64,000 bases of DNA, from the NCBI GenBank assembly GCA_019634025.1, contig JAHQWC010000154.1, positions 1,309 through 65,308 of the forward strand, read 5' to 3'. The translations under genes and the position numbers were made by a program. Below, in pieces: positions 10,033 to 57,823 of this stretch; position 1 is the first letter of the stretch, and each line of letters opens with the position of its first letter. Source of the DNA: Vampirovibrio sp. (GTDB taxonomy: Bacteria > Cyanobacteriota > Vampirovibrionia > Vampirovibrionales > Vampirovibrionaceae). The notes beneath the pieces are model-generated. The model was given only the letters and a program-made list of their open reading frames with translations, was not told the origin of the DNA and did not search any database.

Positions 10033-10033
10033 C

Positions 10034-10888: not shown

Positions 10889-10924
10889 GAAACAGTTGCT
10901 CCTTAAGCGTTGGCGGTTATTCCG

Positions 10925-11434: not shown

Positions 11435-11539
11435 TGAACTCCAGAATCAAGGGGGCGGCAGATAAAGACTTACAGGGAAACTTCTATGGTTTTAACATAT
11501 CCGCTCACTAAAATATAGTATGGTATCGAATGCTGTTTA

Positions 11540-12385
11540 TTAATTAATTTGAACAGCCGACAGCAGTTTTTTTGCAAAGCCTGTGTGACTCGCATGGCCA
11601 GCGTTAAAAGCAAAAATATGTGCCTTTATGTGAAGGGGGTTCAGGCCTGTCAGCATCAAATCTCCCCATAAATCTAAAATTTTATGGCGAATGGGCTCAT
11701 CTTCCATTCTTAGGGGCCGGGTGTATCCCCCATCATCCGTCAAACCCAGGGTGTTGTGTTCATCAACGCCTTTGGCAAGTCCCATAGCTTGTAAAGTAGG
11801 CAGTTCACGGACAAACCCAAAAGTTTGGGCTTTGGCAATGTCTTCAACGGTGTCTTTAGCGCTATCCCAACGGATCCAACGTTGTCTAAGATCCGGGTGA
11901 TCAAAATCAACGGCGTAAGTTACCTGTAAGCGGTTCGAGGGTAATGCATATAAAAGGGTCGTGTCGTTATGTACATAATGAACCGGCTGGGCCAGTTCTA
12001 ATTCTGGCTTGGGTTTAATCATGCAATCCGGCAGTCCGGTATTCAGGTGTTTAATCCACTCTATAGCACTCCCGTCTAATAATGGGAGTTCCGGTGCACC
12101 GTTTACAGATACTTTTAAATCCGAGGCCTCGGCCATGGCGCAAGCAGATAGAAAATGCTCCACAATAGCCAAAAATTTGCCGGATGGGTGACCCAGAGTA
12201 ACTCCCCTCTCGGTGTTTACCACGGTTTCTAATCGAGCAGGAATGGGGAGTTCTCCATCAAGGTAAAATACAATGCCATGGCCTATTGGTGCTGCTTCAA
12301 TCTCCACAGTGACAGGCAGCCCAGTGATCAAGCCTTTGCCACTGACAGTGGTCTTTTTCCCTGAGGGCGCCTCGGTCGTTTCCAA
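11540..12385 (-). CDS. lpxC: UDP-3-O-acyl-N-acetylglucosamine deacetylase
   Basis: LpxC-like sequence (…VEHFLSA…HASHTGFAKKLL), ~280 aa. Positioned between lpxD and fabZ. Confidence 0.75.
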   Translation of the reverse strand: METTEAPSGKKTTVSGKGLITGLPVTVEIEAAPIGHGIVFYLDGELPIPARLETVVNTERGVTLGHPSGKFLAIVEHFLSACAMAEASDLKVSVNGAPELPLLDGSAIEWIKHLNTGLPDCMIKPKPELELAQPVHYVHNDTTLLYALPSNRLQVTYAVDFDHPDLRQRWIRWDSAKDTVEDIAKAQTFGFVRELPTLQAMGLAKGVDEHNTLGLTDDGGYTRPLRMEDEPIRHKILDLWGDLMLTGLNPLHIKAHIFAFNAGHASHTGFAKKLLSAVQIN

Positions 12386-12388
12386 AAC

Positions 12389-13522
12389 CTAGACCTCCAC
12401 TGGCTCGTTTGGGGTGCCCGTATTCTGCTGGGCTGTTTCCAATTCATTCACCCGTTTTTTTAAGGCGATCATATCCTTGTGCATATCTTTCAACTTGTTG
12501 ACGTACCCTAGCGTCTGAAACACCTCCCGATGAGGCTTTGCCGGGGCGCCAACAATAATTGATTTTGGATCAATATCATTCATGACCCCACTTTTGGCCA
12601 TGATGATAACATCATCTCCAATACTAATGTGGTCTTTCAGTCCCACTTGGCCGGCCATCACCACACGATCGCCTACTTTACAACTGCCAGAAATTCCTGC
12701 CTGACCTGCGACCAAACAGTTTTCACCCAAGGTATTGTTGTGGCCGATCATCACCAGGTTATCGATCTTCGTGCCTTTTTTGATTCGAGTAGCGTCTAAA
12801 TTGGCCCGATCAATGGTGGAACAGGCGCCCACTTCCACGTCATCTTCCAGAATCACAGTCCCAATAGAGTTAATCCGAATGATCTCAGAATTTTGTGCTT
12901 CAATTTTCCCGCCAGATTCCCGAGCAGATTCGATGCTACCTTTTTCCGGCGTCACATAGCTAAACCCATCGGCGCCAATGCTGACGTTGTGTTGCAGAAT
13001 CACTCGGTTGCCCAGTATGACCCGTTCACCCACCCGGGCGCCAGAGTGCAGTAAAACATCCTCTCCTAAAACCGCCTCGGCGCCAACGGTCACATGGCTC
13101 ATCAGCACGGCGCCTTTACCGATTTTGGCGCCTTCCCCGACATAGACAAACGCGCCAATCTTAGCAGAGGGGTCCACCTGGGCCGAAGACTCCACAATAG
13201 CACTGGGGTGTACGCCGTCATAAGCATGGACCGGTTTATCAAAAATATTCAGCAGCTGTGCTAACGCCACTCTAGGACGCTCCACCACAATGTATCCGGC
13301 CAACACCCCGTCAGGCACTGTCATCTCTTTAGATACGATGGCGGCTTTTACCGGAGTATGGGGCAGAATTTCCAGTGCCTGAGGCTCAATGGCAAAAGGC
13401 AGATCCTGGGGTGAGGTGGCCATCATCGGGTGAACCAGTTGAGTGACCTCAATGGATCCATCCCCAACGACGGTGCCTTGCACTTGGGTTGCAATGTCCT
13501 GGAGCGAACGTAGTGGGGTCAT
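12389..13522 (-). CDS. lpxD: UDP-3-O-(3-hydroxyacyl)glucosamine N-acyltransferase with a ~40-aa C-terminal coiled-coil-like extension
   Basis: LpxD N-terminal domain and extensive hexapeptide repeats. 377 aa with a C-terminal KLKDMHKDMIALKKRVNELETAQQ tail. Confidence 0.85.
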   Translation of the reverse strand: MTPLRSLQDIATQVQGTVVGDGSIEVTQLVHPMMATSPQDLPFAIEPQALEILPHTPVKAAIVSKEMTVPDGVLAGYIVVERPRVALAQLLNIFDKPVHAYDGVHPSAIVESSAQVDPSAKIGAFVYVGEGAKIGKGAVLMSHVTVGAEAVLGEDVLLHSGARVGERVILGNRVILQHNVSIGADGFSYVTPEKGSIESARESGGKIEAQNSEIIRINSIGTVILEDDVEVGACSTIDRANLDATRIKKGTKIDNLVMIGHNNTLGENCLVAGQAGISGSCKVGDRVVMAGQVGLKDHISIGDDVIIMAKSGVMNDIDPKSIIVGAPAKPHREVFQTLGYVNKLKDMHKDMIALKKRVNELETAQQNTGTPNEPVEV

Positions 13523-25738: not shown

Positions 25739-26956
25739 TTATGCGGTTGCCCGGGTATATTTTTTAGGAGGAAGTAGCCTAAGTTTCCGGAACGCAGCAC
25801 CAGGTCGTTTTAAAAGTTGCTTCAAATACGACTTGCCGGTGACTCCTCGGTTGAAAGCCCATAAGGCAAAGTTTTCATATGGTAGGATATTTCGGTTTAA
25901 CAGCTGATAAACGTACCATAGGGCAGCCTGATGGGAGATGAGGTCGTTACTGGAAGCGTAACGTTTGTTCGGTGGCAGAGTTAAAATCAAGTGTCCAGGC
26001 AGGGTATTTACCAGATTATCAGCATATAAAGTACCTTCATAAGGAATATCTAACTGAGCAAACAATTCTTTTAGCCAGGCTTCCAGTTGAGGAACAGTAT
26101 GGCGGGCAAGCAAATGAGTTTGGTAGGGGTTAGGGTCAACCTCAGGACAATCATCTCTAAGGAGGTCTAAAAATACCTCAGCAGCTTCGTCCAGAGTGCT
26201 AAATTCCCGTGAGTTTGCTTCATTCAGGTAGTCTTTACCGCCACCGGCTAGGTGCTTTTTTACTACTACGGGTAAGCCGCATAACAGTGCTTCAGGAATG
26301 ACTCGAGGGTCTCCTTCTTTATTGGTGAAAAGGGTAAAAATCCGACTTTGGTTGTAAAAGTAAGCCATATCCTCTTGGAGGATGGGCATACCCTGATTGC
26401 CTTCTAGGAGCATTAAGGTGAACTTTTCTCGCTCCTTTAGGCTGAACATCTTTAAGTAGTCGTCATAAATTTCCACATAATCCAGCTCGGGGTCACGCTC
26501 AGAGAGGTTTGGGCAGGCACAGATAATTAATGTGCGGGTTTCCGGGCGGCGGTCGTATACTTTGCGAAGTACGACCAGAAGTTCGTCCAGGCGCTTTAAC
26601 CGGCGAGGGCCAGCCACGGATAATATATCCCAGCGCTTTGCTCCCCGTGTTTCTGGTGCCATTTTGTTGAAACAGTCTGGTAAGAAATTGCGAGCGCATA
26701 AGGTGTTACGAGGAGTAGTGACGTCAGGGGCAAACTTCAGGGTATTAGTGGAGCCTAGGTGAAAATCGATATAGGGGAGCGTTCCGATATTCTCGTGAGG
26801 AGAGCCCCAGTGCATGCCAACGACGTACTGCTTTTTCAGTTCTTTCATAGCTGCGTCCATAAAAGGTACTTCAGGCTGGAAGAAAGCTTTTTCCTTATGG
26901 GTTAACATGAGAATACCCTTGGAATCTCCCACGGGGTCTTTCAGCAAGTGTGGCAT
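25739..26956 (-). CDS. Glycosyltransferase, GT-B fold (GT4-like C-terminal domain)
   Basis: C-terminal motif EGDPRVIPEALLCGLPVVV is typical of the GT4/GT1 donor-binding domain. Confidence 0.5.
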   Translation of the reverse strand: MPHLLKDPVGDSKGILMLTHKEKAFFQPEVPFMDAAMKELKKQYVVGMHWGSPHENIGTLPYIDFHLGSTNTLKFAPDVTTPRNTLCARNFLPDCFNKMAPETRGAKRWDILSVAGPRRLKRLDELLVVLRKVYDRRPETRTLIICACPNLSERDPELDYVEIYDDYLKMFSLKEREKFTLMLLEGNQGMPILQEDMAYFYNQSRIFTLFTNKEGDPRVIPEALLCGLPVVVKKHLAGGGKDYLNEANSREFSTLDEAAEVFLDLLRDDCPEVDPNPYQTHLLARHTVPQLEAWLKELFAQLDIPYEGTLYADNLVNTLPGHLILTLPPNKRYASSNDLISHQAALWYVYQLLNRNILPYENFALWAFNRGVTGKSYLKQLLKRPGAAFRKLRLLPPKKYTRATA

Positions 26957-26976: not shown

Positions 26977-27783
26977 CTACTTGTCCAATAGTAGGTCTTT
27001 GGGTTCCTGAATAATATAGTTCACCAAGACAGAGCGGGCGTTGGTTTTTTGAGGAGAACCGTAATGAAAGCCCCGGACATCGGCCAAAATGAGGGTTCCT
27101 GCTTTTCCGGTGAGTTGAACCTCATTGTGCAACAGGTGTTTCAAGTCGTCTCTGCTTAATCCAGTGCTGGATCCATCTTTTAGTCCCTGAAGCTGACGCT
27201 TCATCCGAGTGCCATGGCGTTTGTGACTGCCGCGGATGTATGTGAAGGGGCCATTAGTGTCATCAACATCGTCTAGGTATAAAAAAGATTTAAACTCTTT
27301 TTTGTAGCCGTCTACATGGTAGCCCCCATCAATATTACCGGCCATGTTGTGTTGATAGAGGAGTAGACCGCTATAGAATGGTCGTCCATAAAATGCTTGA
27401 GCCATCTTTAAGGGGAATGGATCATAGCGGAAGTCGGCAAGCTCATTGAGCAGGCCGTCAACACAGTAGATACGGCGGATACCTTGACCGTACTGGTGCT
27501 TGGCATTACCTACCCGGAGGTAGGCGCCGTTAGGGAGATCACGGTCTTCTTCCGGTGATAAGTATGCTTGAAGCTTTTTACCCATATTCAAGGCTTTTTG
27601 ACGGTCCCAGTAGCTGGGAATCACTACAAAACCGTCTTGGTTAAGGCTACTTAAAGTTTCTTTCTCTTGAGTAGAAAGGTCTTGGGCTGTATCGGCAATA
27701 AGCTGACGGCCAGCGTCCAAGAGATCCTTGGCAGCGGTCTTCGTAGTGTCTTTGATGTTGCGGCGTAGGTCTTTAACGGTCAT
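26977..27783 (-). CDS. Phytanoyl-CoA dioxygenase (PhyH)-family Fe(II)/2-oxoglutarate oxygenase
   Basis: HxD…H facial triad arrangement typical of PhyH: YHVDGY…LYLDDVDDTNGPFTYIRGSH. Confidence 0.6.
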   Translation of the reverse strand: MTVKDLRRNIKDTTKTAAKDLLDAGRQLIADTAQDLSTQEKETLSSLNQDGFVVIPSYWDRQKALNMGKKLQAYLSPEEDRDLPNGAYLRVGNAKHQYGQGIRRIYCVDGLLNELADFRYDPFPLKMAQAFYGRPFYSGLLLYQHNMAGNIDGGYHVDGYKKEFKSFLYLDDVDDTNGPFTYIRGSHKRHGTRMKRQLQGLKDGSSTGLSRDDLKHLLHNEVQLTGKAGTLILADVRGFHYGSPQKTNARSVLVNYIIQEPKDLLLDK

Positions 27784-37034: not shown

Positions 37035-37372
37035 TAAGAAGGCAGAGCGTCTCATCCGGCGGCTGCTTTCATTGAAATCTAAATCCTCTAAACGTATTTC
37101 GCATAAATCACAAAATTGGAATATAGATAGAATAGATGAGTTGATAAAGATTATGCAAAGGTACTTCCTGCGTTTACCGAATTCTCTTTATAATAAAGCC
37201 GATTAATCGAATATTGTCTGTTGGAATCAAAACCCAGTCCCTTCCATTTAGGCTACTGAATTCGTTAGTTTTTTGTAGTCGGCGGGTAGAGAAGAATCTT
37301 ACGTAAGAGTCTTAAAAGGTCTGATTGGATATAAGTATGTTCTTGATAAGTCAGAAAATAGGAGTTAGCTCA

Positions 37373-39181
37373 ATGAATTCAAGAAAAGTCACACCGTTGC
37401 TGTTAGCAGCAAGTGTGTTCTTAACCGGCGCCACAGGATTTTTTCTGGAAGCCATGACTCCTGCGCAGGCGTTGACCAGTGTGGATGAACTTTCAGATGT
37501 AAACTCAAGTCACTGGGCTTATGAAGCCCTGAGAGATTTGGTTGAAAAGTATGACGTGATTGAAGGCTACCCAGACGCCACCTTCCGTGGTGATCGTGCC
37601 CCCACTCGTTGGGAAATGGCTGCCGCCCTCAATGCCTTGGTAAAGTCCGTTGGTCGTGACTTGGCCCGTTTGGGTGCTGAGAAGGCCAACAAACGTGACT
37701 TGGAAACCTTGGCCCGGTTGCAGCAAGAATTCCGCAACGAGCTCAACGCCTTGAACCAACGCACCACTGCTTTGGAGCAACGCGCTTCAGCCATTGAAGC
37801 CAAAAACGAAGAGCAGGATAACCGCTTGACGCTGTTGGAAAAAACCCAGCTTCACGGTGACTTCAGCTTTGGTGGTATTGCTGACGTTGGCGACAACGGA
37901 ATTGCTACCACAGGAAACGACGGTTTCAGAGACGGATTATCCACCATTGGCCGCTTGCGGTTATCCATGGATATTCCAGTAAAAGAAGCTGACGATGATT
38001 CTTACTTGGGACGTGGAGATGTCTACGCCCGGATGATTGCCGCTTTTGGCCGTAACTCCAACACCAACAACGGGTTGGGTGGTTACACCGGATACTCCCG
38101 GATTGCCGGTGACAGCAGCTTTAACAACGAAGGTATCGGGGTTGTAAACGGTGCCTTTGGTACAGCTGGTGTTGCGACAAACGGCGCGAGCACCCGGTCC
38201 AACTTGTACCTGGAATCGGCCTACTACAAGCAAGAAGTGAACCCAGGTGTTCCGATTTTGACCGACTGGTTCGGCATGACGGATTGGGATATTACGGGTG
38301 ACGCCTACGCTGGTGTCGTGCCGTGGCGGTTCTTGTTCGACAAGAGTCCTTACCGTGGTAACGAGTTGACTCAGTTCCAGAACAGCGCCTTTGTGAACAT
38401 TCCTGGCGTTGCTGTGAACCTGAACCAACCCACCTTGGCCTACGTATGGCACATGGGCATGAATGATGAAACCTCTTTGGACTTCACCACTGCCTTTGCC
38501 TCTCCTAACGTGGGTGACGTTTATGATGGCTGGAACCTGACCTACGAAGGCCGGTTAAACTACGATTCATTGTTTGACTTGGCTGGTGCTGGTTCGTTTT
38601 ACGCCGGTGGCTACCACATCTGGTTGAACGGTAACTCTTTGCCAGGATTGGTGACTGCTGTTGGTGGTGCTACCGGCTTTGATCCTTCTGGGAACGGCCT
38701 GAACGTGGTGCAACAAAACAGTTCCAACGCCTTCTACTTAGGTTGGAGTCAGGACTGGTATGAAGGAATCGGAACGACCTTCAACTACCTGCTCTCTAAC
38801 AAAAGTGGTATTGGTATGTTGTATCAATCACTCAATCAAACCAACGGTGTAAGTTCTTCCTTTAACGGGGCAGGAACCGTTGTGAGTGTTCGCCAAGCCC
38901 TCAGCGGCGTGTTGAACATTCCAATGGCCTCTATCGCTCCTGGCTGGAGAGACAGCGACACCTTTGGGATTGGTTACGCCCTGTTTGATTTCCAAGAGAC
39001 TGGTGCTCAGACCAACAACACGGCTGATGCCTGGACTCACGTGATGGAAACCTACTACAAGTACCAGATGACCGAAAGCATCTCGTTGGTGCCTAGTTTA
39101 CAGCTGCACTTGAACCGGCTGGGACTGGACAAAAACGGCATGAGCTACGTGCTTGGTTTCAGAACCAACTACGAATTCTAG
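37373..39181 (+). CDS. Outer-membrane porin with an N-terminal S-layer-homology (SLH) domain and a coiled-coil linker (OprB/SomA-type)
   Basis: Signal peptide, then SLH motif SHWAYEALRDLVEKYDVIEGYPDATFRGDRAPTRWEMAAAL, a coiled coil, a Gly/aromatic-rich beta-barrel region, and a C-terminal NYEF (terminal Phe). Start chosen at MNSRKV with an AGGAG 8 nt upstream. Confidence 0.8.
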   Translation: MNSRKVTPLLLAASVFLTGATGFFLEAMTPAQALTSVDELSDVNSSHWAYEALRDLVEKYDVIEGYPDATFRGDRAPTRWEMAAALNALVKSVGRDLARLGAEKANKRDLETLARLQQEFRNELNALNQRTTALEQRASAIEAKNEEQDNRLTLLEKTQLHGDFSFGGIADVGDNGIATTGNDGFRDGLSTIGRLRLSMDIPVKEADDDSYLGRGDVYARMIAAFGRNSNTNNGLGGYTGYSRIAGDSSFNNEGIGVVNGAFGTAGVATNGASTRSNLYLESAYYKQEVNPGVPILTDWFGMTDWDITGDAYAGVVPWRFLFDKSPYRGNELTQFQNSAFVNIPGVAVNLNQPTLAYVWHMGMNDETSLDFTTAFASPNVGDVYDGWNLTYEGRLNYDSLFDLAGAGSFYAGGYHIWLNGNSLPGLVTAVGGATGFDPSGNGLNVVQQNSSNAFYLGWSQDWYEGIGTTFNYLLSNKSGIGMLYQSLNQTNGVSSSFNGAGTVVSVRQALSGVLNIPMASIAPGWRDSDTFGIGYALFDFQETGAQTNNTADAWTHVMETYYKYQMTESISLVPSLQLHLNRLGLDKNGMSYVLGFRTNYEF

Positions 39182-45510: not shown

Positions 45511-46284
45511 ATGCAATCCACTCAGCCGTTCCCCAAACCTATTCACCCAAGCGTCATTGGTGCTAATCAGCCGCTGGACGTTTTTCGCAAGATACCCCTG
45601 TTTGACTCTCTGACCGAAGCTGATCTGACGTTTATTCGTCCTTTCTTCCATGAGTCTCGGTACGAAAAAGAGAGCGTTATTTTTTACGAGCGAGATCTCC
45701 CCAAAGAGTCCGGCGCCAAAGTTTATTTTGTGTCATCGGGTTGTATTAAGCTGGTGAAGTACTCTTCTGATGGTGAGAGCACCATTGTTCGTCTCGCGTC
45801 AGTCGGAGAATTCTTCGGTGTTACCGGCGCCCTGACAGATAAACCTTATCCTTTCTCGGCAGAAGCTCTCTCGGATACCAGTATTCTCTATGTCGGCAAA
45901 GACGATTTTGTAAACCTGGTGGGACGTTACCCGCAACTCGCCCTGGATATGGTGGTGCAGTTGGGTGAGGTGCTTTGGTTCAATTACGAAACGCACAATC
46001 AAGTGGTCAAGAAAACCGACGCCCGAGTCTCTAAAATCATCCTGTATCACCTCAAACGGGATGGGTATCAGGATACCCCTGATGGCAAAATATTGAACAT
46101 CAACCTGCCCCATGACTATATGGCCAGCATGACCGGTATTGCCTATGAAGAGTCCGTCCGGATCATCAGCCGTTTGAAAAAACAGTTTGGCTGCATCAAC
46201 TACCTGCGCGGCGGCAAAATTGTGATCAAAGATTTAGACTGCTTAAAAAACATTGCCCAGTTAGACGAAGCCTGGGGCTACTAA
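45511..46284 (+). CDS. Crp/Fnr-family transcriptional regulator
   Basis: cNMP-binding beta-roll (…GEFFGVTGALTDKPYPFSAEAL…) plus a C-terminal HTH (…MTGIAYEESVRIISRL…). Confidence 0.75.
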   Translation: MQSTQPFPKPIHPSVIGANQPLDVFRKIPLFDSLTEADLTFIRPFFHESRYEKESVIFYERDLPKESGAKVYFVSSGCIKLVKYSSDGESTIVRLASVGEFFGVTGALTDKPYPFSAEALSDTSILYVGKDDFVNLVGRYPQLALDMVVQLGEVLWFNYETHNQVVKKTDARVSKIILYHLKRDGYQDTPDGKILNINLPHDYMASMTGIAYEESVRIISRLKKQFGCINYLRGGKIVIKDLDCLKNIAQLDEAWGY

Positions 46285-46303
46285 GATACACTTTATTCTG
46301 GTA

Positions 46304-47323
46304 TTACACCCGGATACAGATCTTGCCCACGTGCGCGGCGGCTTCTATGTGCGTAAACGCCTCCGGTGCTTCCTCAAAGTCGAATACCCGATCAATCACT
46401 GGTTGAATCTTCGTCTGAGCTATCCCAGCATTCATGGCGTCAAACGATTGCCGATCACCCACATAAATTCCTTGTACTCGAACCCGGTTCCGCAGGATGG
46501 GAATCACACTCATATCCTTGGTGACGCCGGCCAAAATCCCGATCTGGTAAATATTGCCACCAAACCGCACACAGGCCAACGATTTTTCCAGCGTACCAGC
46601 GCCCCCCACTTCTAAAATATGGTCCACACCCACACCGTCAGTCAGCGATAACACAGATTCCTCCCAATCAGGCGTGTTGCGATAATTGATGCAATCTCCA
46701 GCCGAGATGCCCAGAGCCTGCAGTTTCGTCAGTTTTTCATCACTGCTGGAGGTCACAATAGGCCGGGCGCCTACTGCCAAAGCGAGTTGGGCGGCAAACA
46801 CCGATACACCGCCAGTACCTAAACACAGCACGGTTTCTCCTGGCCGCAAGTTTCCTTCGGTAAACAATGCATTCCATGCCGTCACTGCTGCGCAAGGCAG
46901 GGTAGCCGCCTCCTCATCACTCAAATAAGCTGGCACATGCACCACCCCGTTTTCATGAATGATCTTATGCGTCATTAACATCCCATCGGCTGGGCCGCCT
47001 TGACTAGACTTTAAGGCCTCTCGGCTCGGCTTCCCACAGGTCCAGTGTTCAAAAAAGCACCCCGCCACACGGTCTCCTGGCTGCACCTGAGTCACCTCAG
47101 CACCTACCGAAATAACTTCTCCTACCCCGTCAGACAAGGGCACTAACGGCAAAGGTTGTCGGGGATTATAGCGCCCGGTGACCATCATCAAATCTCGATA
47201 GTTTAACGACATGGCGGTCATTTTCACCACCACCTCATACGGCCCAGGTGTGGGATCAGGCCGTTCTACTTGAACCAGATGGCTAATCCCAAAACTCTCC
47301 TGTATTTCCCATGCTTTCATCAA
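46304..47323 (-). CDS. Zinc-type alcohol dehydrogenase / quinone oxidoreductase (MDR superfamily)
   Basis: GroES-like N-terminal domain and a Rossmann motif CLGTGGVSVFAAQLA. Confidence 0.75.
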   Translation of the reverse strand: MMKAWEIQESFGISHLVQVERPDPTPGPYEVVVKMTAMSLNYRDLMMVTGRYNPRQPLPLVPLSDGVGEVISVGAEVTQVQPGDRVAGCFFEHWTCGKPSREALKSSQGGPADGMLMTHKIIHENGVVHVPAYLSDEEAATLPCAAVTAWNALFTEGNLRPGETVLCLGTGGVSVFAAQLALAVGARPIVTSSSDEKLTKLQALGISAGDCINYRNTPDWEESVLSLTDGVGVDHILEVGGAGTLEKSLACVRFGGNIYQIGILAGVTKDMSVIPILRNRVRVQGIYVGDRQSFDAMNAGIAQTKIQPVIDRVFDFEEAPEAFTHIEAAAHVGKICIRV

Positions 47324-47562
47324 CCATCACCTCTCTGTATCGTGGATTTAACAGGTAGTATGTTACCAAGAGCAAGCCCCCCGTCATAACAGATGTCTAT
47401 GCTATAGTATGAGCACTTGGCGGCTCTTTTATCACCGGCTGAACGAGCAGCAGCAATGCTGCGAGCGAGGCCAAAAAATTATCAGGGTCGGGTTTGGGGC
47501 AGGATACAGGCCCCAATGCCGACGGAGTCGGCCCATCAGCAAGCCGTAGGATTATGCAATAA

Positions 47563-48735
47563 ATGGCGTCACAAAGATTTGACCACCTGCAATACTGCAT
47601 TCGCTGCTGCATGCCTGAAACCCAAGAGGGCCTGAAGTTCGATGAAATGGGCATTTGCCAAGCTTGTCAGTCGTCGGAGCAAAAAATTCATATTAACTGG
47701 GTCGAACGAGAAAGAGTTCTCAGAAATCTTCTAGAAGACGTGAAGGCCAAAGCGGGCAATAATTACGATTGCATCCTGCCCATTAGCGGTGGTAAAGACA
47801 GCACGTTTCAAATGCACGTATTGGTCAACGTCTATAAAATGAAGCCTCTGGCGGTTACCTTCAGCCATAACTGGTTTAGCGAAACCGGTTGGTATAACCT
47901 CACCAATGCTCTTGAACAGTTTGATATCGATCACATCCTGTTCACCCCCAACCGAGGGCTGGTGAACCGGTTGGCCAAAAAATCTTTGTCCGCCATTGGC
48001 GACTCTTGTTGGCATTGCCACAGTGGCATTGGCGCCTTCCCCTTACAAATAGCGGTTAAGTTTAATATCCCTCTCCTCATCTGGGGCGAATCCATTGCCG
48101 AAGCCTCAGGCCGAGCCTCTTATTTAGAGCCGGTGCGTAAGTTTGACCGGGAATACTTCACCAAGGTGTCTGCCAAGGTGAAGCCAGAAGACATGGTGGG
48201 TGATGGCCTGACAGAAAAAGATCTTCAGCCCTTTATGTTGCCCAGTGCCGAAGAGTGCGAACGCGTTGGCCTGTATGGCATTCATTTGGGTGATTACATT
48301 TTTTGGGACGATGAACGCCAGACCGAATTTGTCCGGGATACATACGGCTGGAAAGAGACCGAAATTGAAGGTGCTTTTAAGTGCTATAAAAGTGCTGAAT
48401 GCGTTATGCCCGGCATGCATGATTTCACCTGCTACCTTAAACGCGGCTTTGGCCGTTCCTCATACCAAGCCAGTGTGGATGTGCGTAATGGTCTCCTGAC
48501 TCGAGAAGAAGGATTTGAGCTGGCCAAAAAAGATATGGAACGTCCTGAAGCCCTTGATTATTACTTAAAAATTACCGGCTTAACTGAGGAAGAATTTTAC
48601 GAGACCATGAAATCCAAACGCGTTCCTCAACTCCAAGGCGTTGATTTGCCGGTGATCGAAAAGACTCGCCCCAACCGCGAACGCATCCTCCCGTATCCCC
48701 AGCAACTTCAAGAAGATATGTCGCCTAAAAAATGA
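47563..48735 (+). CDS. N-acetyl sugar amidotransferase (PP-loop ATP pyrophosphatase; LPS/polysaccharide biosynthesis, WbuX/PseA-like)
   Basis: N-terminal CxxC…CxxC zinc ribbon (CIRCCMPE…GICQACQ) followed by PP-loop ILPISGGKDSTF. Confidence 0.7.
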   Translation: MASQRFDHLQYCIRCCMPETQEGLKFDEMGICQACQSSEQKIHINWVERERVLRNLLEDVKAKAGNNYDCILPISGGKDSTFQMHVLVNVYKMKPLAVTFSHNWFSETGWYNLTNALEQFDIDHILFTPNRGLVNRLAKKSLSAIGDSCWHCHSGIGAFPLQIAVKFNIPLLIWGESIAEASGRASYLEPVRKFDREYFTKVSAKVKPEDMVGDGLTEKDLQPFMLPSAEECERVGLYGIHLGDYIFWDDERQTEFVRDTYGWKETEIEGAFKCYKSAECVMPGMHDFTCYLKRGFGRSSYQASVDVRNGLLTREEGFELAKKDMERPEALDYYLKITGLTEEEFYETMKSKRVPQLQGVDLPVIEKTRPNRERILPYPQQLQEDMSPKK

Positions 48736-50213
48736 TGATGAGCGAAAAAAGCGGATTCCTATTCACCTCAATTGCCGATATCCAAGCCCGCTTGGCAAAC
48801 GGCAGCCTGACGCCCACAGAAGTTGCCCAATGGGCTATTGATGTGGTGGAGTGTCTGGAACCCTACGTAAAAGCCTGGGTCCGGTTTGATGCCCATCAGC
48901 TCATGGATCATGCAAAAGAAGTTGAAGCCCACCTGAAATTCGGCCAATCCTTGGGTTCTCTTACAGGTATTCCAGTCGGTATCAAAGACATGATGAATAC
49001 TGCAGACTTCCCTACCGAAATGGGCAGCCCGTTGTGGCAAGGCTTTACCCCTGGCAACGACGCCCGGGTGCTCTTTTACCTGAAGCAGGCTGGTGCGTTG
49101 GTTCCGGGTAAAACCGTTACGGCAGAATTTGCCGTCCACACGCTGGATAAAACCCTCAATCCCCATGATCCCACACGTACCCCCGGCACTTCTTCCAGTG
49201 GCTCCGCTGCTGCGGTTGCTGCCGGCATGGTTCCGGTGGCTCTGGGCACTCAAACCGCAGGTTCTATTGTCCGCCCCGCCAGTTTTTGCGGAGTCTATGG
49301 TTGCAAACCTTCCTTTGGGCTCATCCCTCGCACTGGCATGCTCAAAACTACCGATAGCTTGGATACTGTCGGCTTTTTTGTGTCCCACCTGGTAGATATG
49401 GAGCGGGTCTTTGATGTGGTCCGGGTCCACGGCCAAAACTTTCCTCTTAGTCATGCCGCTCTTAGAGATGAAGCTCGTCAAAACAAACCCCCTGGTAAGC
49501 CATGGCGCATTGCATTTGTGAAACCCCATGTCTGGGACGATGCTCACCCCTATGCCCAAGAGGCTATGACGGGCTGGGTCGAAAGCCTGAAAAACATACC
49601 GGATGTCGAGGTGGTGGAGGCTGATTTACCCTCTGAAACTCTTGATTCCCATCGGATCCACGCCACCATCTATAACAAAACCCTGTCCTATTATTTTCAG
49701 GAAGAATTCAAAAAAGCCGAACTGGTGTCTCCGGTCATGAACGATCTCATCACCCAAGGGCAAGCCATCTCGGTAGAAGCTTATCAACAGGCCCTCAAAG
49801 ATCAGGAAGCCATGGCCCAAGTGGTAGATACATGGATCCAGGATTTTGATGCTGTTGTCACTTTAAGTACAGCAGGCGAAGCTCCTCTGCGTGAAGACAC
49901 CGAACGCCCGGATTCGGCTCTCCTCTGGAACATGACCTACCTCCCCGTAATCAGTGCTCCTACGTTTATTGGCCCTACCGGCCTCCCCTTCGGCCTCCAA
50001 CTCGTCGCCCGCCGTTATAATGACTATAAATTGTTCAAAGTCGCAAGCTATTTCAACACCCACGGCCTGTTGCCGGATGGGGTAAATCCAGTTGCCAAAA
50101 TAGTCAAAAATATTGTCGGCTCTGGTCAAGGTGTCATTCCCGCAGAGGCGACCATGGCCGTGTGCAACGCAGGAGCACATACGGATATGGATACCCGTGG
50201 TGGAACCCGTTGA
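48732..50213 (+). CDS. Amidase-signature family enzyme (GatA-like amidase)
   Basis: AS signature [45 protein letters not shown]. Start overlaps the upstream gene's stop by 4 nt. Confidence 0.8.
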
Positions 50214-52099
50214 CAGCATTTGCTATAAACACTCACCATATCTTTACCGAGGCCATCACCCCCGAAGCCCTCGGCTTCCTAAAACAACACGCCAAAACCA
50301 CCCCCAACATCATTTGCTACCTCCCGGCAGACAACCTTCCTGTCCCAAGCCCCAGCAGCCTGCCTCCAAATGTTACCCTTAAATCTTTTAAAGACGAAGA
50401 CCAAGTTTTCGACCCCATTCTTCACGCTTACCAAATCGGTCGAGAAATTGCGGATACCCTTATCGCCGACCTCACCTCCCGGCACCCACAATGTTTCCAG
50501 CTCCCTGGGACTCCATATGATTTTCAACCCCTGTTCACCTTTAACACCCAATTTCACTTTGCCCGCCACCAGTTCAACTTTTGGCTCAACTGCGTTCATC
50601 AAATCACGGCATCTAAGACTCATCAATTTACCTTCCTCAACTTCAGCTATCTGTTTACCCCTTCCTGGAAGGTATTAGCCCAAAGGTTTCCGCAGCTAGA
50701 CCAATCCAACTGTGATTGGCAGCATACAGGCGATTTGCCCAACCGGGTGGGCTTAAAACTTACCGCCTCCCTCACCCGGTTCAAATACCGGCTCAAACGA
50801 CAACTCAAACCCACTCAGAATAGATCTGATAGAACCGGTGGAACACTCTCCTACGTCCGAGCCTCCCATCATTTAGATATGGTGGAGCCTACCCTGGCTA
50901 TTTTGTCAGAATCCCAGCCTGTTACTTTGTTGGACTACCTGCCGTCTAAATTCCATAAAACCCATCCCAACTACCTGACTGGTCGAATTGACCGATACCC
51001 TGGTATTCATCCTACGAACCCACGGCAGTTTCATCCCAGCCATACCATGCTACGCCGGGTCCACCGGCATCAGTTGTCTCTGACCAAAGTGATCCTGAAA
51101 CAAAAAGAGCCGGTTCTCCGCCAACAAGATACGCTCCTCCTCGCTCAGCTGCAAAAACAATTGAAGCAGTTTTTAAGATTGGAATCCATTATCAGTCACC
51201 TTCAGCCCACTATGGTGGTGGCCTGTATGGAAGCCGACGCCTTCAGTCTGATCTTGCAAGAATTGCAAAAAACCACGCCGTTTAAGACCATCAACCACTT
51301 GCATGGAGTGGCCCCATATTTTTACGCCATGGATCTATGCCGGTTTGACGCCTTTATGGTGTGGAACCAACTGACCAAGGAAATCCTCATCAAAGACGGC
51401 TACCGGGATGTCGAAGAAGGTAAACCGGTTTCCATTCAGGTGGTGGGCACCCCGTTTTGGGAAGGTAACGGTGATCTGGATACTGTCAGTGAGGAAACCG
51501 AGATTGTCCAAGACCTTCGCCGGTGGAAAGGCAATGCAAAGTTGATCGTGGCTTATTCTACCGTGTTGGTGACGTATGTGACCCCTAAGCAAAAGCAAGA
51601 TTACTTTGAGACCCTGGGTACTTTCTTATCGGACCATCCCACCGCCAAGATGGTGATTAAAAAACACCCTAATGAGTTCGATTCCCTTGTCCACACCTTT
51701 TACAACAACCTTCCTCAATCTATCAAAGATCGGGTCCGGCTGATGGAAGCCAAAGAACTTCCTCTATACGAATCCTTCCGGGTAGCGGATGTTGCCGTGG
51801 CCATTTGCTCCAGCGTGTTGCAAGAAGCCCTTTACTACCGAGTTCCTGCTGTCTCCTTGGACTACGAAAAAGTCATTGCATTGCTGGGTTATGGGTTTGA
51901 GCAAATTATGGCCGTGGTCACAGATCCGATGGAAGCACCGACTGTCTTAGACCGGGTGCTTAAGAATGGCATTGCTGATGAAGCCTTTGCTGAGGAAACC
52001 CGGCAAAAAGTTTTCCCAAAATTCTTGGATCGTTATCCAAATCGAGTTCGACGGGTACTTTCAATGTTAACTTCTCCACAAGCTTGCCCCACACTGTAG
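50162..52099 (+). CDS. TagF-like CDP-glycerol glycerophosphotransferase / capsule polysaccharide biosynthesis family protein (putative)
   Basis: C-terminal …VIKKHPNE…ADVAVAICSSVLQEALYYRVPAVSL resembles the KxHP…(ITDYSS)-type motif of Glyphos_transf enzymes. The longest ORF overlaps the amidase 3' end by 52 nt. Confidence 0.4.
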   Translation: MQRRSTYGYGYPWWNPLTAFAINTHHIFTEAITPEALGFLKQHAKTTPNIICYLPADNLPVPSPSSLPPNVTLKSFKDEDQVFDPILHAYQIGREIADTLIADLTSRHPQCFQLPGTPYDFQPLFTFNTQFHFARHQFNFWLNCVHQITASKTHQFTFLNFSYLFTPSWKVLAQRFPQLDQSNCDWQHTGDLPNRVGLKLTASLTRFKYRLKRQLKPTQNRSDRTGGTLSYVRASHHLDMVEPTLAILSESQPVTLLDYLPSKFHKTHPNYLTGRIDRYPGIHPTNPRQFHPSHTMLRRVHRHQLSLTKVILKQKEPVLRQQDTLLLAQLQKQLKQFLRLESIISHLQPTMVVACMEADAFSLILQELQKTTPFKTINHLHGVAPYFYAMDLCRFDAFMVWNQLTKEILIKDGYRDVEEGKPVSIQVVGTPFWEGNGDLDTVSEETEIVQDLRRWKGNAKLIVAYSTVLVTYVTPKQKQDYFETLGTFLSDHPTAKMVIKKHPNEFDSLVHTFYNNLPQSIKDRVRLMEAKELPLYESFRVADVAVAICSSVLQEALYYRVPAVSLDYEKVIALLGYGFEQIMAVVTDPMEAPTVLDRVLKNGIADEAFAEETRQKVFPKFLDRYPNRVRRVLSMLTSPQACPTL

Positions 52100-52139
52100 G
52101 TAGGACCTCTTCGGGATTACAAAGAGCCTTCCACCAGGC

Positions 52140-52517
52140 TCAAACCCACAACACCGCGTCCATCTGTGGAAAGGGTGACCACCCGCCAGAGCCCTGTGCA
52201 AACGGCGTCTGCGGTAGTACGGCCTGAGGTGCTGGCACATTGGCAATTCTGGCCCAATTGCTAAATTTACGAGTATCCACCGGCTGCCCGTAGATGTCTG
52301 AGGCGATAAACTGAACGGAATCCCGTCCCTCTCCCAATAGCGAGTTTACGGTGTAAATATCTGGTAGCGAGGCCAACATCGCCTCTGCAGCTTGCTGTTG
52401 TTCTTCCTCGTCAACAACGTAATAGTCAGTACGACCGTCCGCATCCCGATCAGGACTACCGCCCATTGATGCGGTCACTCCTGGGTTGCTATACCCTGCA
52501 TTCATGTGAATCGACAT
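52140..52517 (-). CDS. Small protein carrying only the N-terminal module shared with the neighbouring lysozyme and M23 peptidase (hypothetical)
   Basis: N-terminus MSIHMNAGYSNPGVTASMGGS…AMLASLPDIYT aligns with the N-termini of the products of 52681..53505 and 53683..54558. Preceded by a duplicated upstream element. Confidence 0.5.
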   Translation of the reverse strand: MSIHMNAGYSNPGVTASMGGSPDRDADGRTDYYVVDEEEQQQAAEAMLASLPDIYTVNSLLGEGRDSVQFIASDIYGQPVDTRKFSNWARIANVPAPQAVLPQTPFAQGSGGWSPFPQMDAVLWV

Positions 52518-52527
52518 TATTTTGTTG

Positions 52528-52581
52528 TCCCAACCTGCCTATATCCATGTATATAAAAACAAATAGTTTGTTTTTTGTGCG
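52528..52581 (-). promoter_or_regulatory. Conserved upstream element, copy 1 (putative promoter/leader of 52140..52517)
   Basis: TCCCAACCTGCCTATA-n8-TATAAAAACAAA-n9-TTTTGTGCG. The same blocks with identical spacing recur at 53511..53565. Confidence 0.5.
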
Positions 52582-52680
52582 CATTTGTTGCGTTTTTTTA
52601 CCTGAAGGAGAAGGGAGACAGACGCTTTCAAGCTGAAGCATTCTAGTATCCAGCCAGGTTCAATATAAACGACTCTCTAC

Positions 52681-53505
52681 TTAGCTGGTTAGAGGCTGAT
52701 CAGACCGACTATCCTCTTTCAAAAACCGATTCGCCTCACGTTCTCTGCGTGCGACTAAAACGGGATGAACATTTCCACCCGCCTTATTCCATCGAAGAAA
52801 CTCTCGGGCTGCCCCTGCATAGTCCTTATTGTTTAACTTCTTCAATAACGTACTTTTTCTAAAGCCACCCGTCCCAATGTTATACGAGAGGGATACTAGG
52901 CTATCAAACATATTGGTTGTTACCGGTACTTTTACATGGTGTTTAATTACAGGTTCAATTTTTTCAGCGATCCATCGTTTGAAATCACTTTTTGCTTTGG
53001 CTTGAGTAACGGTTTCCCCTTTACGCACTTTACGCCAACTACCATTTTCATAAATATAATGTAAGCCGTATCCAACAGCATATCCCTTATAGTCCCAATA
53101 TGCCTTACCACGGAAACCTTCTTCTTTCATCAATGCTTCTAATCCAGCTTTAGAGGTTTTTAAATCGTTAATAGGGACTGCATTTTCATCTACATCAATC
53201 ACTAACCCATCGGTTAATCCTGCTAATTGCAACTGGCTATCTGCCTTTTCGCTTTCATCTCCAAGTAAACCCCATAGGGCCAATACAAAGGCTTCTGTAG
53301 GAGAGTTCTCCAAACTGGCCAAATCGGTTAAATCATCTGATTTGCCCTGATTAGCGCTCAGTTCAAACGTATCAACATCGCTCAGCATCGCTGCGGCAAG
53401 TGCTTTGGTAGTTGCTTCGTATACCTCACCAGGCTTAACAACGCTTGTGTTCCTAACACCAGAAGCTGCATTATATGGATTCTGTCCAATAGATGTCATG
53501 ACCAA
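52681..53505 (-). CDS. GH24 (T4/lambda-type) lysozyme with a ~130-aa N-terminal extension
   Basis: C-terminal domain …GFRGKAYWDYKGYAVGYGLHY…TNMFDSLVSLSYNIGTGGFRKSTLLKKLNNKDYAGAAREFLRWNKAGG…VLVARREREANRF is a typical phage-type lysozyme core. No signal peptide. Confidence 0.8.
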   Translation of the reverse strand: MVMTSIGQNPYNAASGVRNTSVVKPGEVYEATTKALAAAMLSDVDTFELSANQGKSDDLTDLASLENSPTEAFVLALWGLLGDESEKADSQLQLAGLTDGLVIDVDENAVPINDLKTSKAGLEALMKEEGFRGKAYWDYKGYAVGYGLHYIYENGSWRKVRKGETVTQAKAKSDFKRWIAEKIEPVIKHHVKVPVTTNMFDSLVSLSYNIGTGGFRKSTLLKKLNNKDYAGAAREFLRWNKAGGNVHPVLVARREREANRFLKEDSRSDQPLTS

Positions 53506-53682: not shown

Positions 53683-54558
53683 ATGGTCGATTTTAATGCC
53701 GGATTCGGCAGACAATCCAATTTTTATTATGGTTCTCAAGGCGGGCTTTACGGGCCTCGTCCCACGCTCATCAGCGATTATGACTTGCTCTTCGGTGGTA
53801 CGCCGTATGGCGAAAACCCCTTGCTGGACGACAGCTATAGTGCAGATTTTATGTATAGCCGTAGTAATGGCGATGATGATGGTGGCAGCAGTTGGTGGGA
53901 CTGGGGCAAATGGATCCTGGGTGGTGCAGCAGCGTTAGTGGGTGCCTCGTTTGCCTTTGGCGATAAAAACCCCGGCTTCCTGGGCAAAATTAGAGATGGC
54001 ATTAAAGGAATTTGGAATAAGTTTTTCGGTTCCGATGATTCAAGTGTTGGCCACCGCGATGAGTATTCATACCCGCCCCAAGAAATAACAGATGCCCAAC
54101 GTAAAACCGCCAAAGAGAACGGAACAGATTCACTCTCATTTACCAGGCCTGTTGCTGGCGGAAGAATAAGCTCCCACCATGGAATGCGAGAGCACCCGAT
54201 AGAAGGAGGGCTAAAAATGCATAACGGGGATGACATCGCCGTAGGAAAAGGCACTCCGGTAAATGTAACCGCCGATGGAATTGTTGTTGATGTTCAAGAC
54301 GAGGATAAAGGCAAATACGGACGGTATATTGATGTCCTTCACTATGACAAAAAAGAAGGAATCTATTATCTAACTCGTTATGCACACCTTGATAAAACAG
54401 ACGTAACGATTGATCAGGAAGTTAAGCAAGGGGATGTTATTGGCAAATCCGGCGATTCGGGTGCAGTAACAGGAGAACACCTCCATTACGAAATCCATAA
54501 AGGGGACGCAGAGGGGGTAGATTTTAAAACCATCGATCCCAAATTAAATGATGCATAG
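53683..54558 (+). CDS. M23/LytM-family metallo-endopeptidase with a ~150-aa N-terminal extension
   Basis: HHGMREHPIEGGLKMHNGDDIA (HxxxD) and GEHLHYEIH (HxH) motifs. N-terminus MVDFNAGFGRQSNFYYGSQGG resembles the N-terminus of 52140..52517. AGGTTGG motif in the leader. Confidence 0.8.
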   Translation: MVDFNAGFGRQSNFYYGSQGGLYGPRPTLISDYDLLFGGTPYGENPLLDDSYSADFMYSRSNGDDDGGSSWWDWGKWILGGAAALVGASFAFGDKNPGFLGKIRDGIKGIWNKFFGSDDSSVGHRDEYSYPPQEITDAQRKTAKENGTDSLSFTRPVAGGRISSHHGMREHPIEGGLKMHNGDDIAVGKGTPVNVTADGIVVDVQDEDKGKYGRYIDVLHYDKKEGIYYLTRYAHLDKTDVTIDQEVKQGDVIGKSGDSGAVTGEHLHYEIHKGDAEGVDFKTIDPKLNDA

Positions 54559-56230: not shown

Positions 56231-57823
56231 TTACTCTTCGTTCTTATGCCACACCAGGCTATACAAGTCATGCCGGCGGTCTCGCAGGTTTTGGACGGTG
56301 CCCATATTTCGGGCGCGGTGCAGGTTTTCCATCCGCAGGTCGGCAAAGGCCACAGTTTCCACGTTTGGGGTGGTGTCGGCGGCAATGCCATCTCTCGAAA
56401 ATGCAAAGTCGCACGGGGTTAAAATGCAGCTCTGGGCATACTGAATATCCATATTGTGGACCCTGGGCAGGTTCCCCACGTTGCCGCTCAGCACCACATA
56501 GCACTGGTTTTCCACGGCTCTGGCTTGGCAGCTGTAGCGTACCCGCAAATAACTTTGGCGCTCATCGGTACAAAACGGCACAAACAACATGGTGGCGCCT
56601 TGATCCACCAAGTGCCGGCTTAATTCCGGAAACTCCGCGTCATAGCATATCAACACCCCAATGGGTCCGCAGTCGGTTTCAATCACATCCAACTTATCCC
56701 CACCTTCAATATTCCACCAGTACCGTTCGTTGGGGGTGGGATGAATCTTGGCCTGCTCATGGATGGTGCCGTCTCGCAGGCACACCATCGAAATATTTTG
56801 AATCGCCGTGGTTTTGTCCTTATGAGGTACCTTGGTGGGATGCGATCCCGCAATAATATTCACGTTGTACTTGATGGCCAACGTGCTAAAAAACGCCTTT
56901 AACCGCTCGGTATAATCCGTTAAATGATCAATGGCCTTTTCCGGGCGTACCGGTTCGTTTTCAATCGAGAGCAATTGCAAGGTAAACAGTTCCGGAAACA
57001 CCACAAAATCTGCCCGGTAATCCGAGACCACATCCACAAAGTAGGTCACAATCTGCTCAAACTCTTCAAAAGATTCGATCCGCCGTTGCTGATACTGCAC
57101 CGTGGCCAGCCGAACGGTATCAGACGATCTGAATCCATACTTTTTGTCGCTGGACGCCTCGGCCTTATTTACCGACGGGTTGTACCACACCATGTGCGAG
57201 GCGTAGGCCAACGATTCCCGGTCACTGGGCAAATAATCTTTTAACACGCCAATGACCTCAAACCCCCGGCGTAGTTGAAAGGCCAATACCGGATCCCGGA
57301 TCTCTTTGTGTTTCACCATCTCCACATAGTTATCTACCGTCTTGGCCTTGGCCAGCCGCTTATGCAGCAACGGCATTCTGCCGCCAAACACAATGCCTTT
57401 CAGCCGGTAATGGCGGCACAGGTTTTTTCGCGCCGTGTATAACCGATCGCCAATGCGGATTCCCCGGTAGTCCGGGTCGACAAACACTTCCATCCCATAC
57501 AAATAATCCCCCTCCGGCTCATGGGTCGATCCATATCCTCCGCCGGTAATTTCCCGCCAGGTGTGGGCGGCAAAGGCTCTTTCTTTGGAGATTCTTATCG
57601 TCGCGCAGTACCCGACCACCTGCCCTTCGTAGGTGGCGACGAACTGACCTTCGGGGTAGTTATTAATTTGCCCCCGCAACACCGATGCCGTGTAAGGAGG
57701 AATGTCCGTATATACCTTGGTAGACAGCGCCTGAATGTCTTTGACGTCAGACGTCTTGGCATTGCGAATGACCAGCTTCGGCTTCTGGGTGTCTTTTTTC
57801 AAAGCTGTTTTTTTCTTTGCCAT
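56231..57823 (-). CDS. Bifunctional GNAT N-acetyltransferase / carbon-nitrogen hydrolase (nitrilase superfamily) fusion protein
   Basis: N-terminal GNAT fold (…QFVATYEGQVVGYCATIRI…), then a CN-hydrolase domain (VVFPELFT…, ICYDAEFPE with catalytic Cys, …ENQCYVV). Confidence 0.7.
   Translation of the reverse strand: MAKKKTALKKDTQKPKLVIRNAKTSDVKDIQALSTKVYTDIPPYTASVLRGQINNYPEGQFVATYEGQVVGYCATIRISKERAFAAHTWREITGGGYGSTHEPEGDYLYGMEVFVDPDYRGIRIGDRLYTARKNLCRHYRLKGIVFGGRMPLLHKRLAKAKTVDNYVEMVKHKEIRDPVLAFQLRRGFEVIGVLKDYLPSDRESLAYASHMVWYNPSVNKAEASSDKKYGFRSSDTVRLATVQYQQRRIESFEEFEQIVTYFVDVVSDYRADFVVFPELFTLQLLSIENEPVRPEKAIDHLTDYTERLKAFFSTLAIKYNVNIIAGSHPTKVPHKDKTTAIQNISMVCLRDGTIHEQAKIHPTPNERYWWNIEGGDKLDVIETDCGPIGVLICYDAEFPELSRHLVDQGATMLFVPFCTDERQSYLRVRYSCQARAVENQCYVVLSGNVGNLPRVHNMDIQYAQSCILTPCDFAFSRDGIAADTTPNVETVAFADLRMENLHRARNMGTVQNLRDRRHDLYSLVWHKNEE

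Follow-up and report, generated by a model that had tools for sequence, protein, structure and literature searches.

A WbuX-type sugar amidotransferase paired with an amidase-signature enzyme: a candidate ammonia-donating partner in the place of HisH/HisF

We analyzed a 64-kb stretch of a Vampirovibrio sp. metagenome-assembled genome (MAG), called the window below, with respect to three genes: a WbuX-type N-acetyl sugar amidotransferase (NASAT; gene 1), the amidase-signature (AS) enzyme encoded directly behind it (gene 2) and a rare GT-B-fold transferase (gene 3). Genes 1 and 2 belong to a conserved module that occurs at about 150 loci in bacteria and archaea, and their pairing is far beyond chance. 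Based on sequence comparisons we propose, with a probability of roughly 60%, that gene 2 supplies the ammonia as a subunit of an amidotransferase that forms acetamidino groups. The amidase would thus perform the job that canonically belongs to the HisH/HisF paralogues (WbuY/WbuZ). The literature that we searched held no account of a pairing of WbuX with an amidase, nor of an AS enzyme acting as glutaminase for a PP-loop synthetase.

The three same-strand open reading frames (ORFs) extend over 47563–48735, 48732–50213 and 50162–52099, as described in an earlier note on this DNA (the original prediction). Genes 1 and 2 share the tetranucleotide ATGA (48732–48735, + strand), in which the ATG start codon of gene 2 (48732–48734) overlaps the TGA stop codon of gene 1 (48733–48735). 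The 4-nucleotide overlap named in the same note is therefore present in the sequence, and it suggests translational coupling of the two genes.

The amidotransferase and the amidase

Gene 1 (47563–48735, + strand) codes for 390 residues and is, judged from its sequence, a clear member of the WbuX family of N-acetyl sugar amidotransferases. It matches the WbuX model TIGR03573 with 327.3 bits (cut-off 203.2) and covers model positions 2–344 of 344, in agreement with the PP-loop NASAT originally predicted. The PP-loop is formed by S75-G-G-K-D-S80 (47785–47802) and the Zn-ribbon cysteines are C12, C15, C32 and C35. Both the PP-loop (SGGxDS) and the Zn-binding tetracysteine motif have been described from the crystal structure of a Legionella enzyme (PMC10607449), and in gene 1 they are invariant across the four distant homologues compared. 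Homologues from a Cyanobacteriota MAG, Ignavibacteria and Methanomicrobiales are 70–74% identical to gene 1.

Gene 2 (48732–50213, + strand; 493 residues) encodes a malonamidase-E2-like AS enzyme, the proposed ammonia-releasing partner. It scores 245.6 bits against the Amidase family PF01425 (gathering threshold 27). NCBI lists a protein of 100% identity under the name "amidase [Vampirovibrio sp.]"; a look-up by exact sequence returned no record. The nearest relative of solved structure is malonamidase E2 (MAE2; PDB-entry 1obi), which aligns in full length with 202 bits (query residues 13–438), whereas GatA from the PDB gives 144 bits and aligns with the N-terminal part only (query residues 11–302). 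The catalytic triad is intact: K85 (48984–48986), the cis-serine S155 (49194–49196) and the nucleophile S178 (49263–49265) align with K62, S131 and S155 of MAE2. Close to the nucleophile, R181 (49272–49274) is the equivalent of the carboxylate-binding R158 of MAE2 (S178-I-V-R181 versus S155-V-I-R158). The lysine and both serines of the triad as well as the equivalent of R181 are invariant in 73 members of the gene 2 family. This conservation of the arginine suggests that the donor is a small amide bearing a carboxylate. Homologues at 55–63% identity were found in Ignavibacteria, Bacteroidota, a Cyanobacteriota MAG, Acidovorax, Methanoregula and Methanomicrobiales.

The term "GatA-like", which had been applied to gene 2, holds at the level of the superfamily (PF01425) and fails below it. 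The GatA equivalog model TIGR00132 gives 195.9 bits against a cut-off of 481.1, with an alignment confined to residues 19–301. We rejected an identity as GatA orthologue because this cut-off is missed and only the N-terminal ~290 residues align. Gene 2 also lies far below every cut-off among the NCBIfam amidase models (25 listed of 26 matched), and it misses the equivalogs for AtzE, allophanate hydrolase and indoleacetamide hydrolase, the best of which is AtzE with 204 versus 461 bits. At its C-terminus the protein carries an extension of ~30 residues (50120–50213) that overlaps the start region of gene 3; the homologues, which comprise 450–465 residues, lack it.

Conservation of the pair across genomes

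We scanned one genome per species (185,579 species) with peptides specific for the WbuX clade of gene 1 and obtained 121 relatives. All genome-locus counts given here rest on the best 80 of these 121 WbuX relatives, 78 of which had room for an amidase gene. In every one of the 78 an amidase follows immediately 3' of the clade WbuX on the same strand. The 80 loci come from more than 15 phyla, including bacteria of the candidate phyla radiation (CPR; for example Candidatus Kaiserbacteria, complete chromosome OY969413.1, L068), Babeliales, Dehalococcoidia and one methanogen; two of them belong to isolates, Solidesulfovibrio alcoholivorans DSM 5433 (L080) and Magnetospirillum sp. UT-4 (L082). A reciprocal scan of metagenome contigs from the amidase side provided 73 loci with room. 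A clade WbuX adjoins the amidase in 70 of these, once in reversed order, and the remaining three consist of one near miss and two exceptions. In the first three contexts inspected, the gene directly 5' of the amidase encodes a WbuX-family protein (320–350 bits). The co-occurrence elsewhere that the original prediction had raised is thereby borne out from both sides.

The two enzymes are also found as one polypeptide. Single-ORF fusions of WbuX and amidase (862–885 residues) occur at no fewer than 10 genome loci and 2 metagenome loci, among them that of S. alcoholivorans DSM 5433, where the fused protein has 875 residues (L080, 9977–12604). NCBIfam searches with three fusions, including the one from the isolate, placed WbuX at residues 13–352 and the amidase at about 420–855 of the same chain. 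An apparent fusion at a further locus (L059) was discarded as a high-GC artefact, its "linker" being unlike those of the other fusions. In about half of the unfused pairs a candidate start codon of the amidase overlaps the WbuX stop codon by 1–20 nucleotides.

WbuX proteins linked to an amidase group closely together in one clade, with identities of 58–100% (mean 69%), and are only 24–39% identical to those linked to HisH/HisF. Across bacteria, CPR bacteria and one methanogen this WbuX (mean 69%) is better conserved than the amidase (about 45–63%), which on sequence grounds implies strong constraint and recent horizontal spread.

Relation to HisH/HisF-linked WbuX

For comparison with canonical systems we used seven WbuX loci on annotated plasmids, whose WbuX proteins are 23–36% identical to gene 1. 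The premise that canonical WbuX normally has HisH/HisF-like partners was found to be correct: hisH and hisF/wbuZ flank WbuX in five of the seven loci, and of the other two one has asnB and one is without a listed partner. The triad WbuX-HisH-HisF also appears in published gene tables (PMC11340318; PMC3694923). At L085 the order is WbuX-hisH-hisF with a 4-nucleotide overlap of WbuX and hisH, the same as between gene 1 and gene 2. At L172 (2163–5122), on an Azospirillum brasilense plasmid, asnB lies directly 5' of the canonical WbuX.

Two annotated WbuY/WbuZ-type HisH/HisF pairs from canonical WbuX operons served as tblastn queries, and both positive controls (L085 and L087) were detected. The same search gave nothing anywhere in the 64-kb window. 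A Pfam scan of the 49 long ORFs of the window, which cover essentially every plausible gene, likewise gave no match to PF00117 or PF00977. Nearby hisH/hisF genes, whose presence would have spoken against the original prediction, are thus absent from the window by both methods. Among the 80 genome loci, 75 have no hisH/hisF homologue within 10 kb and five do. Each of these five has a second WbuX paralogue with hisH/hisF on its flanks; the amidase-linked WbuX is found 3–7 kb away beside its amidase. Since hisH/hisF flank only this second, distantly related paralogue, each type of WbuX keeps its own partner. One cluster (L017, 2031–5658 and 10010–11029) contains three WbuX paralogues, two of which flank hisH-hisF, the third being accompanied by the amidase.

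By this comparison of gene neighborhoods, the amidase fills the genomic and the stoichiometric niche of HisH/HisF. The central idea of the original prediction, an amidase in place of HisH/HisF, is therefore backed by adjacency seen from both sides, by the fusions, by the absence of hisH/hisF from the window and from 75 of the 80 loci, and by the partner-specific pairing.

Pathway context

To characterize the surroundings of the pair, we clustered every ORF located no more than 10 kb from the 80 genome loci and annotated representative members. A recurrent gene order emerged: cytidylyltransferase, Gfo/Idh/MocA oxidoreductase, DegT aminotransferase, PseG-like GT-B protein, GNAT acetyltransferase, WbuX and amidase. 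A NeuB-type synthase is present in 37 of the 80 loci and a PseB-type dehydratase in 20. The contents of the clusters correspond to equivalents of PseB, PseC, PseH, PseG, PseI and PseF, and the WbuX-amidase pair represents the sole non-core genes that recur in these Pse-type clusters. By gene content, the usual context of the pair is a pseudaminic-acid-type nonulosonic acid cluster and neither a teichoic nor a uronic-acid pathway. A glycerophosphate or capsule-type polymer, or a UDP-uronic acid as target, as had been suggested originally, finds no indication in this conserved context.

A variant is seen at L002 (9417–17386) and about 17–25 similar loci of Ignavibacteria and Bacteroidota. There the amidase is followed by a Capsule_synth-type gene, a GT2 gene, genes for phosphonate synthesis (phosphoenolpyruvate mutase, phosphonopyruvate decarboxylase and an iron-type alcohol dehydrogenase) and a Glyphos_transf gene. 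Clusters of this type suggest a phosphonate-decorated glycan that contains a nonulosonic acid.

Proposed mechanism and alternatives

In the mechanism that we propose, the products of genes 1 and 2 each contribute one half of a heteromeric amidotransferase. The two would assemble into a physical complex, and some organisms make them as one fused protein. The WbuX-type PP-loop enzyme would spend ATP to activate the N-acetyl carbonyl of an activated sugar; in most carriers this substrate is most likely a CMP-pseudaminic-acid-type nonulosonic acid. In the second step the malonamidase-E2-like amidase would hydrolyse a small primary amide that carries a carboxylate. Glutamine comes to mind first, although asparagine or some other amide is possible as well. 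The released ammonia would then be handed to the amidotransferase to yield an acetamidino (acetimidoyl) sugar.

A wider interpretation is that the module represents an unrecognised class of amidotransferase, in which an AS-type, MAE2-like hydrolase is the dedicated ammonia-generating subunit or domain of a PP-loop NASAT. After GatCAB it would be the second known case in which the AS fold serves to channel ammonia, and the first that involves a PP-loop synthetase. The highly conserved, horizontally spread cassette would make acetamidino nonulosonic acids, possibly from a donor other than glutamine. We judge the odds of this to be a little better than even.

Several points weigh against the amidase as ammonia donor. 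The searched literature holds no experiment on any member of the WbuX-amidase family. Gene 2 is nearer to malonamidase E2 than to GatA and stays below the GatA equivalog cut-off. The C-terminal residues by which GatA binds glutamine are not alignable with gene 2 by sequence. At L150 (2458–7242) the amidase adjoins a triad of hisH, hisF and canonical WbuX, and at L166 it has no WbuX within 6 kb. The 49 long ORFs of the window include no NeuB, PseB-type dehydratase, DegT or CMP-sugar synthetase. Fusion and adjacency, finally, are compatible with two consecutive reactions as well as with ammonia channelling, and MAE2-like amidases can be late-stage tailoring hydrolases, as exemplified by GbnM of gladiolin biosynthesis (bioRxiv 10.64898/2026.04.24.720606).

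These last points lead to the main rival explanation, sequential tailoring, which we consider possible but unlikely. The amidase would act on the sugar or glycan before or after WbuX, either by hydrolysing a transient primary amide ("cryptic amidation") or by removing or exchanging an N-acyl group, and WbuX would use free ammonia. GbnM provides a precedent, as it hydrolyses a primary amide installed by the gladiolin pathway itself; its gene, however, does not adjoin that of the amidating enzyme (bioRxiv 10.64898/2026.04.24.720606). Free ammonia may be a possible substrate, since canonical WbuX genes without listed hisH/hisF neighbors exist (L086, L172), and consecutive enzymes become fused as well. 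On the other hand, the invariant Arg181 points to a small carboxylate-bearing amide and not to a bulky CMP-sugar, and the amidase pairs one-to-one with WbuX in the position that HisH/HisF otherwise occupy, with each WbuX paralogue having its own partner. An enzyme that first amidates and then deamidates within one polypeptide would also be futile. Because of this futility and the one-to-one positional replacement of HisH/HisF, we favor the role of the amidase as ammonia donor.

We regard it as improbable that the AS enzyme is a transacylase or amide-bond former in the manner of ClbL from the colibactin pathway, transferring an acyl or aminoacyl group onto a sugar amine or amidine and thereby producing an N-acyl variant beyond the simple acetamidino group. 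ClbL, an AS-family member, is reported to form bonds (PMC10478638), and many unusual N-acyl groups occur on nonulosonic acids (PMC5378307). Gene 2, however, shows no specific similarity to ClbL, its best matches are hydrolases, and no recurrent gene for the formation of an acyl donor is located beside the pair. A meaningless adjacency to an amidase of unrelated catabolic role, for which only the generic annotation "amidase" and the failure to reach any equivalog model could be quoted, is effectively refuted by the adjacency in 78 of 78 and 70 of 73 loci across bacteria, archaea and CPR, by at least 12 independent fused loci and by the location of the pair inside sugar biosynthesis clusters.

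The third gene

Gene 3 (50162–52099, + strand; 645 residues) had been described as overlapping the amidase gene and as TagF-like. The overlap exists: it amounts to 52 nucleotides from the GTG at 50162, and an in-frame TTG at 50210 would give a TTGA start/stop overlap. Membership in the TagF family (PF04464) does not hold. Gene 3 has no Pfam match at E ≤ 0.01, its sole NCBIfam match is weak (E 0.004), and TagF (PDB-entry 3l7k) ranks only 47th in the structural search described below. The NCBI gene call for this protein comprises 454 residues (P0121), while the full-length homologues retain the first ~190 residues. In view of this N-terminal conservation, the start codon chosen in the deposited record is probably incorrect and the deposited protein too short.

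The family is very rare. Among 5.8 billion proteins we found two other full-length homologues (646 and 648 residues, 32–34% identity), and a profile search of a word-indexed database with the resulting three-sequence alignment gave no further members. An exhaustive HMMER search revealed 118 remote relatives among 1.84 billion representatives. The Pfam matches of these relatives scatter over DUF6716, Epimerase_2, Glyphos_transf, Capsule_synth and GT1; PF04464 is matched by 6 of 63 remote relatives, and PF05159 and PF02350 are matched equally often.

An AlphaFold2 model calculated from a 63-sequence alignment (60 remote relatives added to the three) reached a predicted local distance difference test score (pLDDT) of 89.8 and a predicted template modeling score of 0.90, compared with a pLDDT of 35.5 for the three-sequence alignment. 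Foldseek matched the model to 220 PDB chains (E ≤ 0.001), with GT-B proteins at the top of the list. UDP-GlcNAc 2-epimerases rank first, the polysialyltransferase 5wcn third and TagF, as mentioned, far behind, all at 11–15% identity. The conserved motif KKHPNE ("HP" motif; residues 500–505, 51659–51676) aligns with the K-x-H-P motifs of the Capsule_synth-type and Glyphos_transf-type proteins encoded beside the pair at other loci. Using hhalign, the C-terminal domain of gene 3 was related to both types about equally: the former (PF05159) reached a probability of 95.6% (E 1e-8), with an alignment confined to that domain, and the latter 93.7%, whereas gene 3 has no direct Pfam match to PF05159. 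Gene 3 is best described as a lineage-specific GT-B transferase that would use a nucleotide-activated donor; the TagF-type, KpsC/S-type and polysialyltransferase families are no more than remote relatives of it.

A TagF-like transferase as part of the module, as proposed originally, was not confirmed. No homologue of gene 3 is present in any of 160 other related loci, and we therefore rejected it as a conserved member. BLASTP of gene 3 against genes found 3' of the amidase elsewhere (Capsule_synth type, BFO_1060-like) gave nothing significant, so that gene 3 is not orthologous to the post-amidase genes of other loci. The order PhyH-WbuX-amidase-gene 3 is observed at L088 and L089, the loci of the two full-length homologues, one of which resides in a genome syntenic with the window. 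The association of gene 3 with the pair is confined to Vampirovibrio-like genomes. In this Vampirovibrio, the pair would be co-transcribed with the transferase, whose probable role is to attach the modified sugar to a surface glycan.

Surroundings in the window

Upstream of the three-gene unit lie genes for a Zn-dependent dehydrogenase (opposite strand) and a Crp-type regulator; downstream are a small hypothetical gene and genes for a lysozyme-domain protein and an M23 peptidase. As neither these flanks nor the other window ORFs contain core sugar-pathway genes, the three genes are isolated here from any core sugar pathway. An Rfam scan of 46200–52700 gave no match and hence no glutamine or other riboswitch. 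Promoter and terminator scans were at chance level and uninformative on co-transcription.

Two adjoining genes elsewhere in the window are tentatively linked to the unit. The first (25739–26956, − strand) encodes a GT1-like glycosyltransferase with a weak PF00534 match, and a 57%-identical homologue was located by tblastn beside the gene 3 homologue of L090. The second (26977–27783, − strand; PF05721, E 1.2e-7) encodes a PhyH-like dioxygenase, a tentative extra member of the glycan system, which is 39–48% identical to the PhyH genes of L088, L089 and L090 (tblastn). In L088 and L089 the PhyH homologue immediately precedes WbuX. In L090, where the set consists of GT1-like, methyltransferase, gene 3-like (P3-like) and PhyH-like genes, it adjoins the gene 3 homologue. 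Since relatives of gene 3 adjoin homologues of both genes, the glycan system may be split across two sites of the window, about 20 kb apart.

The lysozyme-domain protein and the M23 peptidase form a divergent pair. The former (52681–53505, − strand) has a phage-lysozyme domain with an N-terminal extension of ~125 residues, and the latter (53683–54558, + strand) has a long N-terminus rich in Gly, Asp and Ser. A predatory Vampirovibrio may secrete both of them to lyse cell walls. A 530-residue fusion of a GNAT acetyltransferase domain and a carbon-nitrogen hydrolase (nitrilase-family) domain is encoded at 56231–57823 (− strand). An ordinary lipid A cluster, GlmU-LpxA-FabZ-LpxC-LpxD (8605–13522, − strand), and an SLH-OprB porin (37325–39181, + strand) are consistent with a diderm envelope of the Melainabacteria type.

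Significance

Positively charged acetamidino variants of pseudaminic and legionaminic acid shape the antigenicity of flagellin, S-layer and lipopolysaccharide. To our knowledge, nobody has so far reconstituted the enzymology of amidination. The structural paper on the Legionella enzyme is silent on the source of ammonia (PMC10607449). The pairing described here points to an undescribed route that feeds nitrogen into cell-surface sugars. It also gives an annotation rule for several hundred genes now labeled only "amidase" or "GatA family amidase", and it draws attention to modified nonulosonic acids in lineages that have received little study, such as Vampirovibrionia, CPR bacteria, Ignavibacteria and methanogens. 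With only two components, which the cultured S. alcoholivorans DSM 5433 naturally makes as a fusion, the system is easier to handle than the three proteins WbuX, HisH and HisF and could make the reaction, the nitrogen donor and any ammonia tunnel testable.

Comparison with known systems

The closest counterpart is the WbuX/WbuY/WbuZ system (PseA, WbpG, LfnA, LpNASAT). It shares the synthetase family TIGR03573 with PP-loop and Zn-Cys4 motif, the location in nonulosonic acid or O-antigen clusters and a tightly coupled partner in the same downstream position (PMC10607449; PMC11340318). The module differs from it in that a single AS protein replaces the two HisH/HisF paralogues, that its WbuX forms a separate clade and that the two proteins are sometimes fused.

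The transferase encoded by gene 3 resembles TagF-like (PF04464) and KpsC/KpsS-like (PF05159) proteins and bacterial polysialyltransferases in its predicted GT-B fold, and it shares with both Pfam families a K-x-H-P motif in the C-terminal nucleotide-binding domain. It differs in falling below every Pfam threshold and in the rarity of its family.

With malonamidase E2 from Bradyrhizobium (PDB-entry 1obi) gene 2 has in common equivalents of K62, S131, S155 and R158. MAE2 is, however, a stand-alone hydrolase, whereas the gene 2 family has an obligate NASAT partner. About 100 positions of this family are invariant, and many of them are unlike MAE2 (T153, H307, Y314, Y320, Y321, E325 and R387).

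In GatCAB, the AS-family member GatA acts as the glutaminase, and its ammonia is channelled to GatB. Gene 2 is likewise a Ser-cisSer-Lys enzyme of the AS fold, for which we propose the release of ammonia for the ATP-dependent amidation carried out by a partner. This partner is a PP-loop NASAT instead of GatB/GatC, no tRNA substrate is involved, and gene 2 scores below the cut-off of the GatA equivalog model.

GMP synthetase, AsnB and NadE resemble the module in that a PP-loop ATP pyrophosphatase is joined or fused to an ammonia-generating hydrolase domain; here the hydrolase is of the AS type. PP-loop synthetases pair with glutaminases of class I (GuaA), of the N-terminal nucleophile (Ntn) type (AsnB) and of the nitrilase type (NadE), and we know of no previous description of an AS-type hydrolase in combination with a PP-loop synthetase. 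If the proposed role is correct, an AS-type donor would join the class I, Ntn and nitrilase-type glutaminases as a partner of these synthetases.

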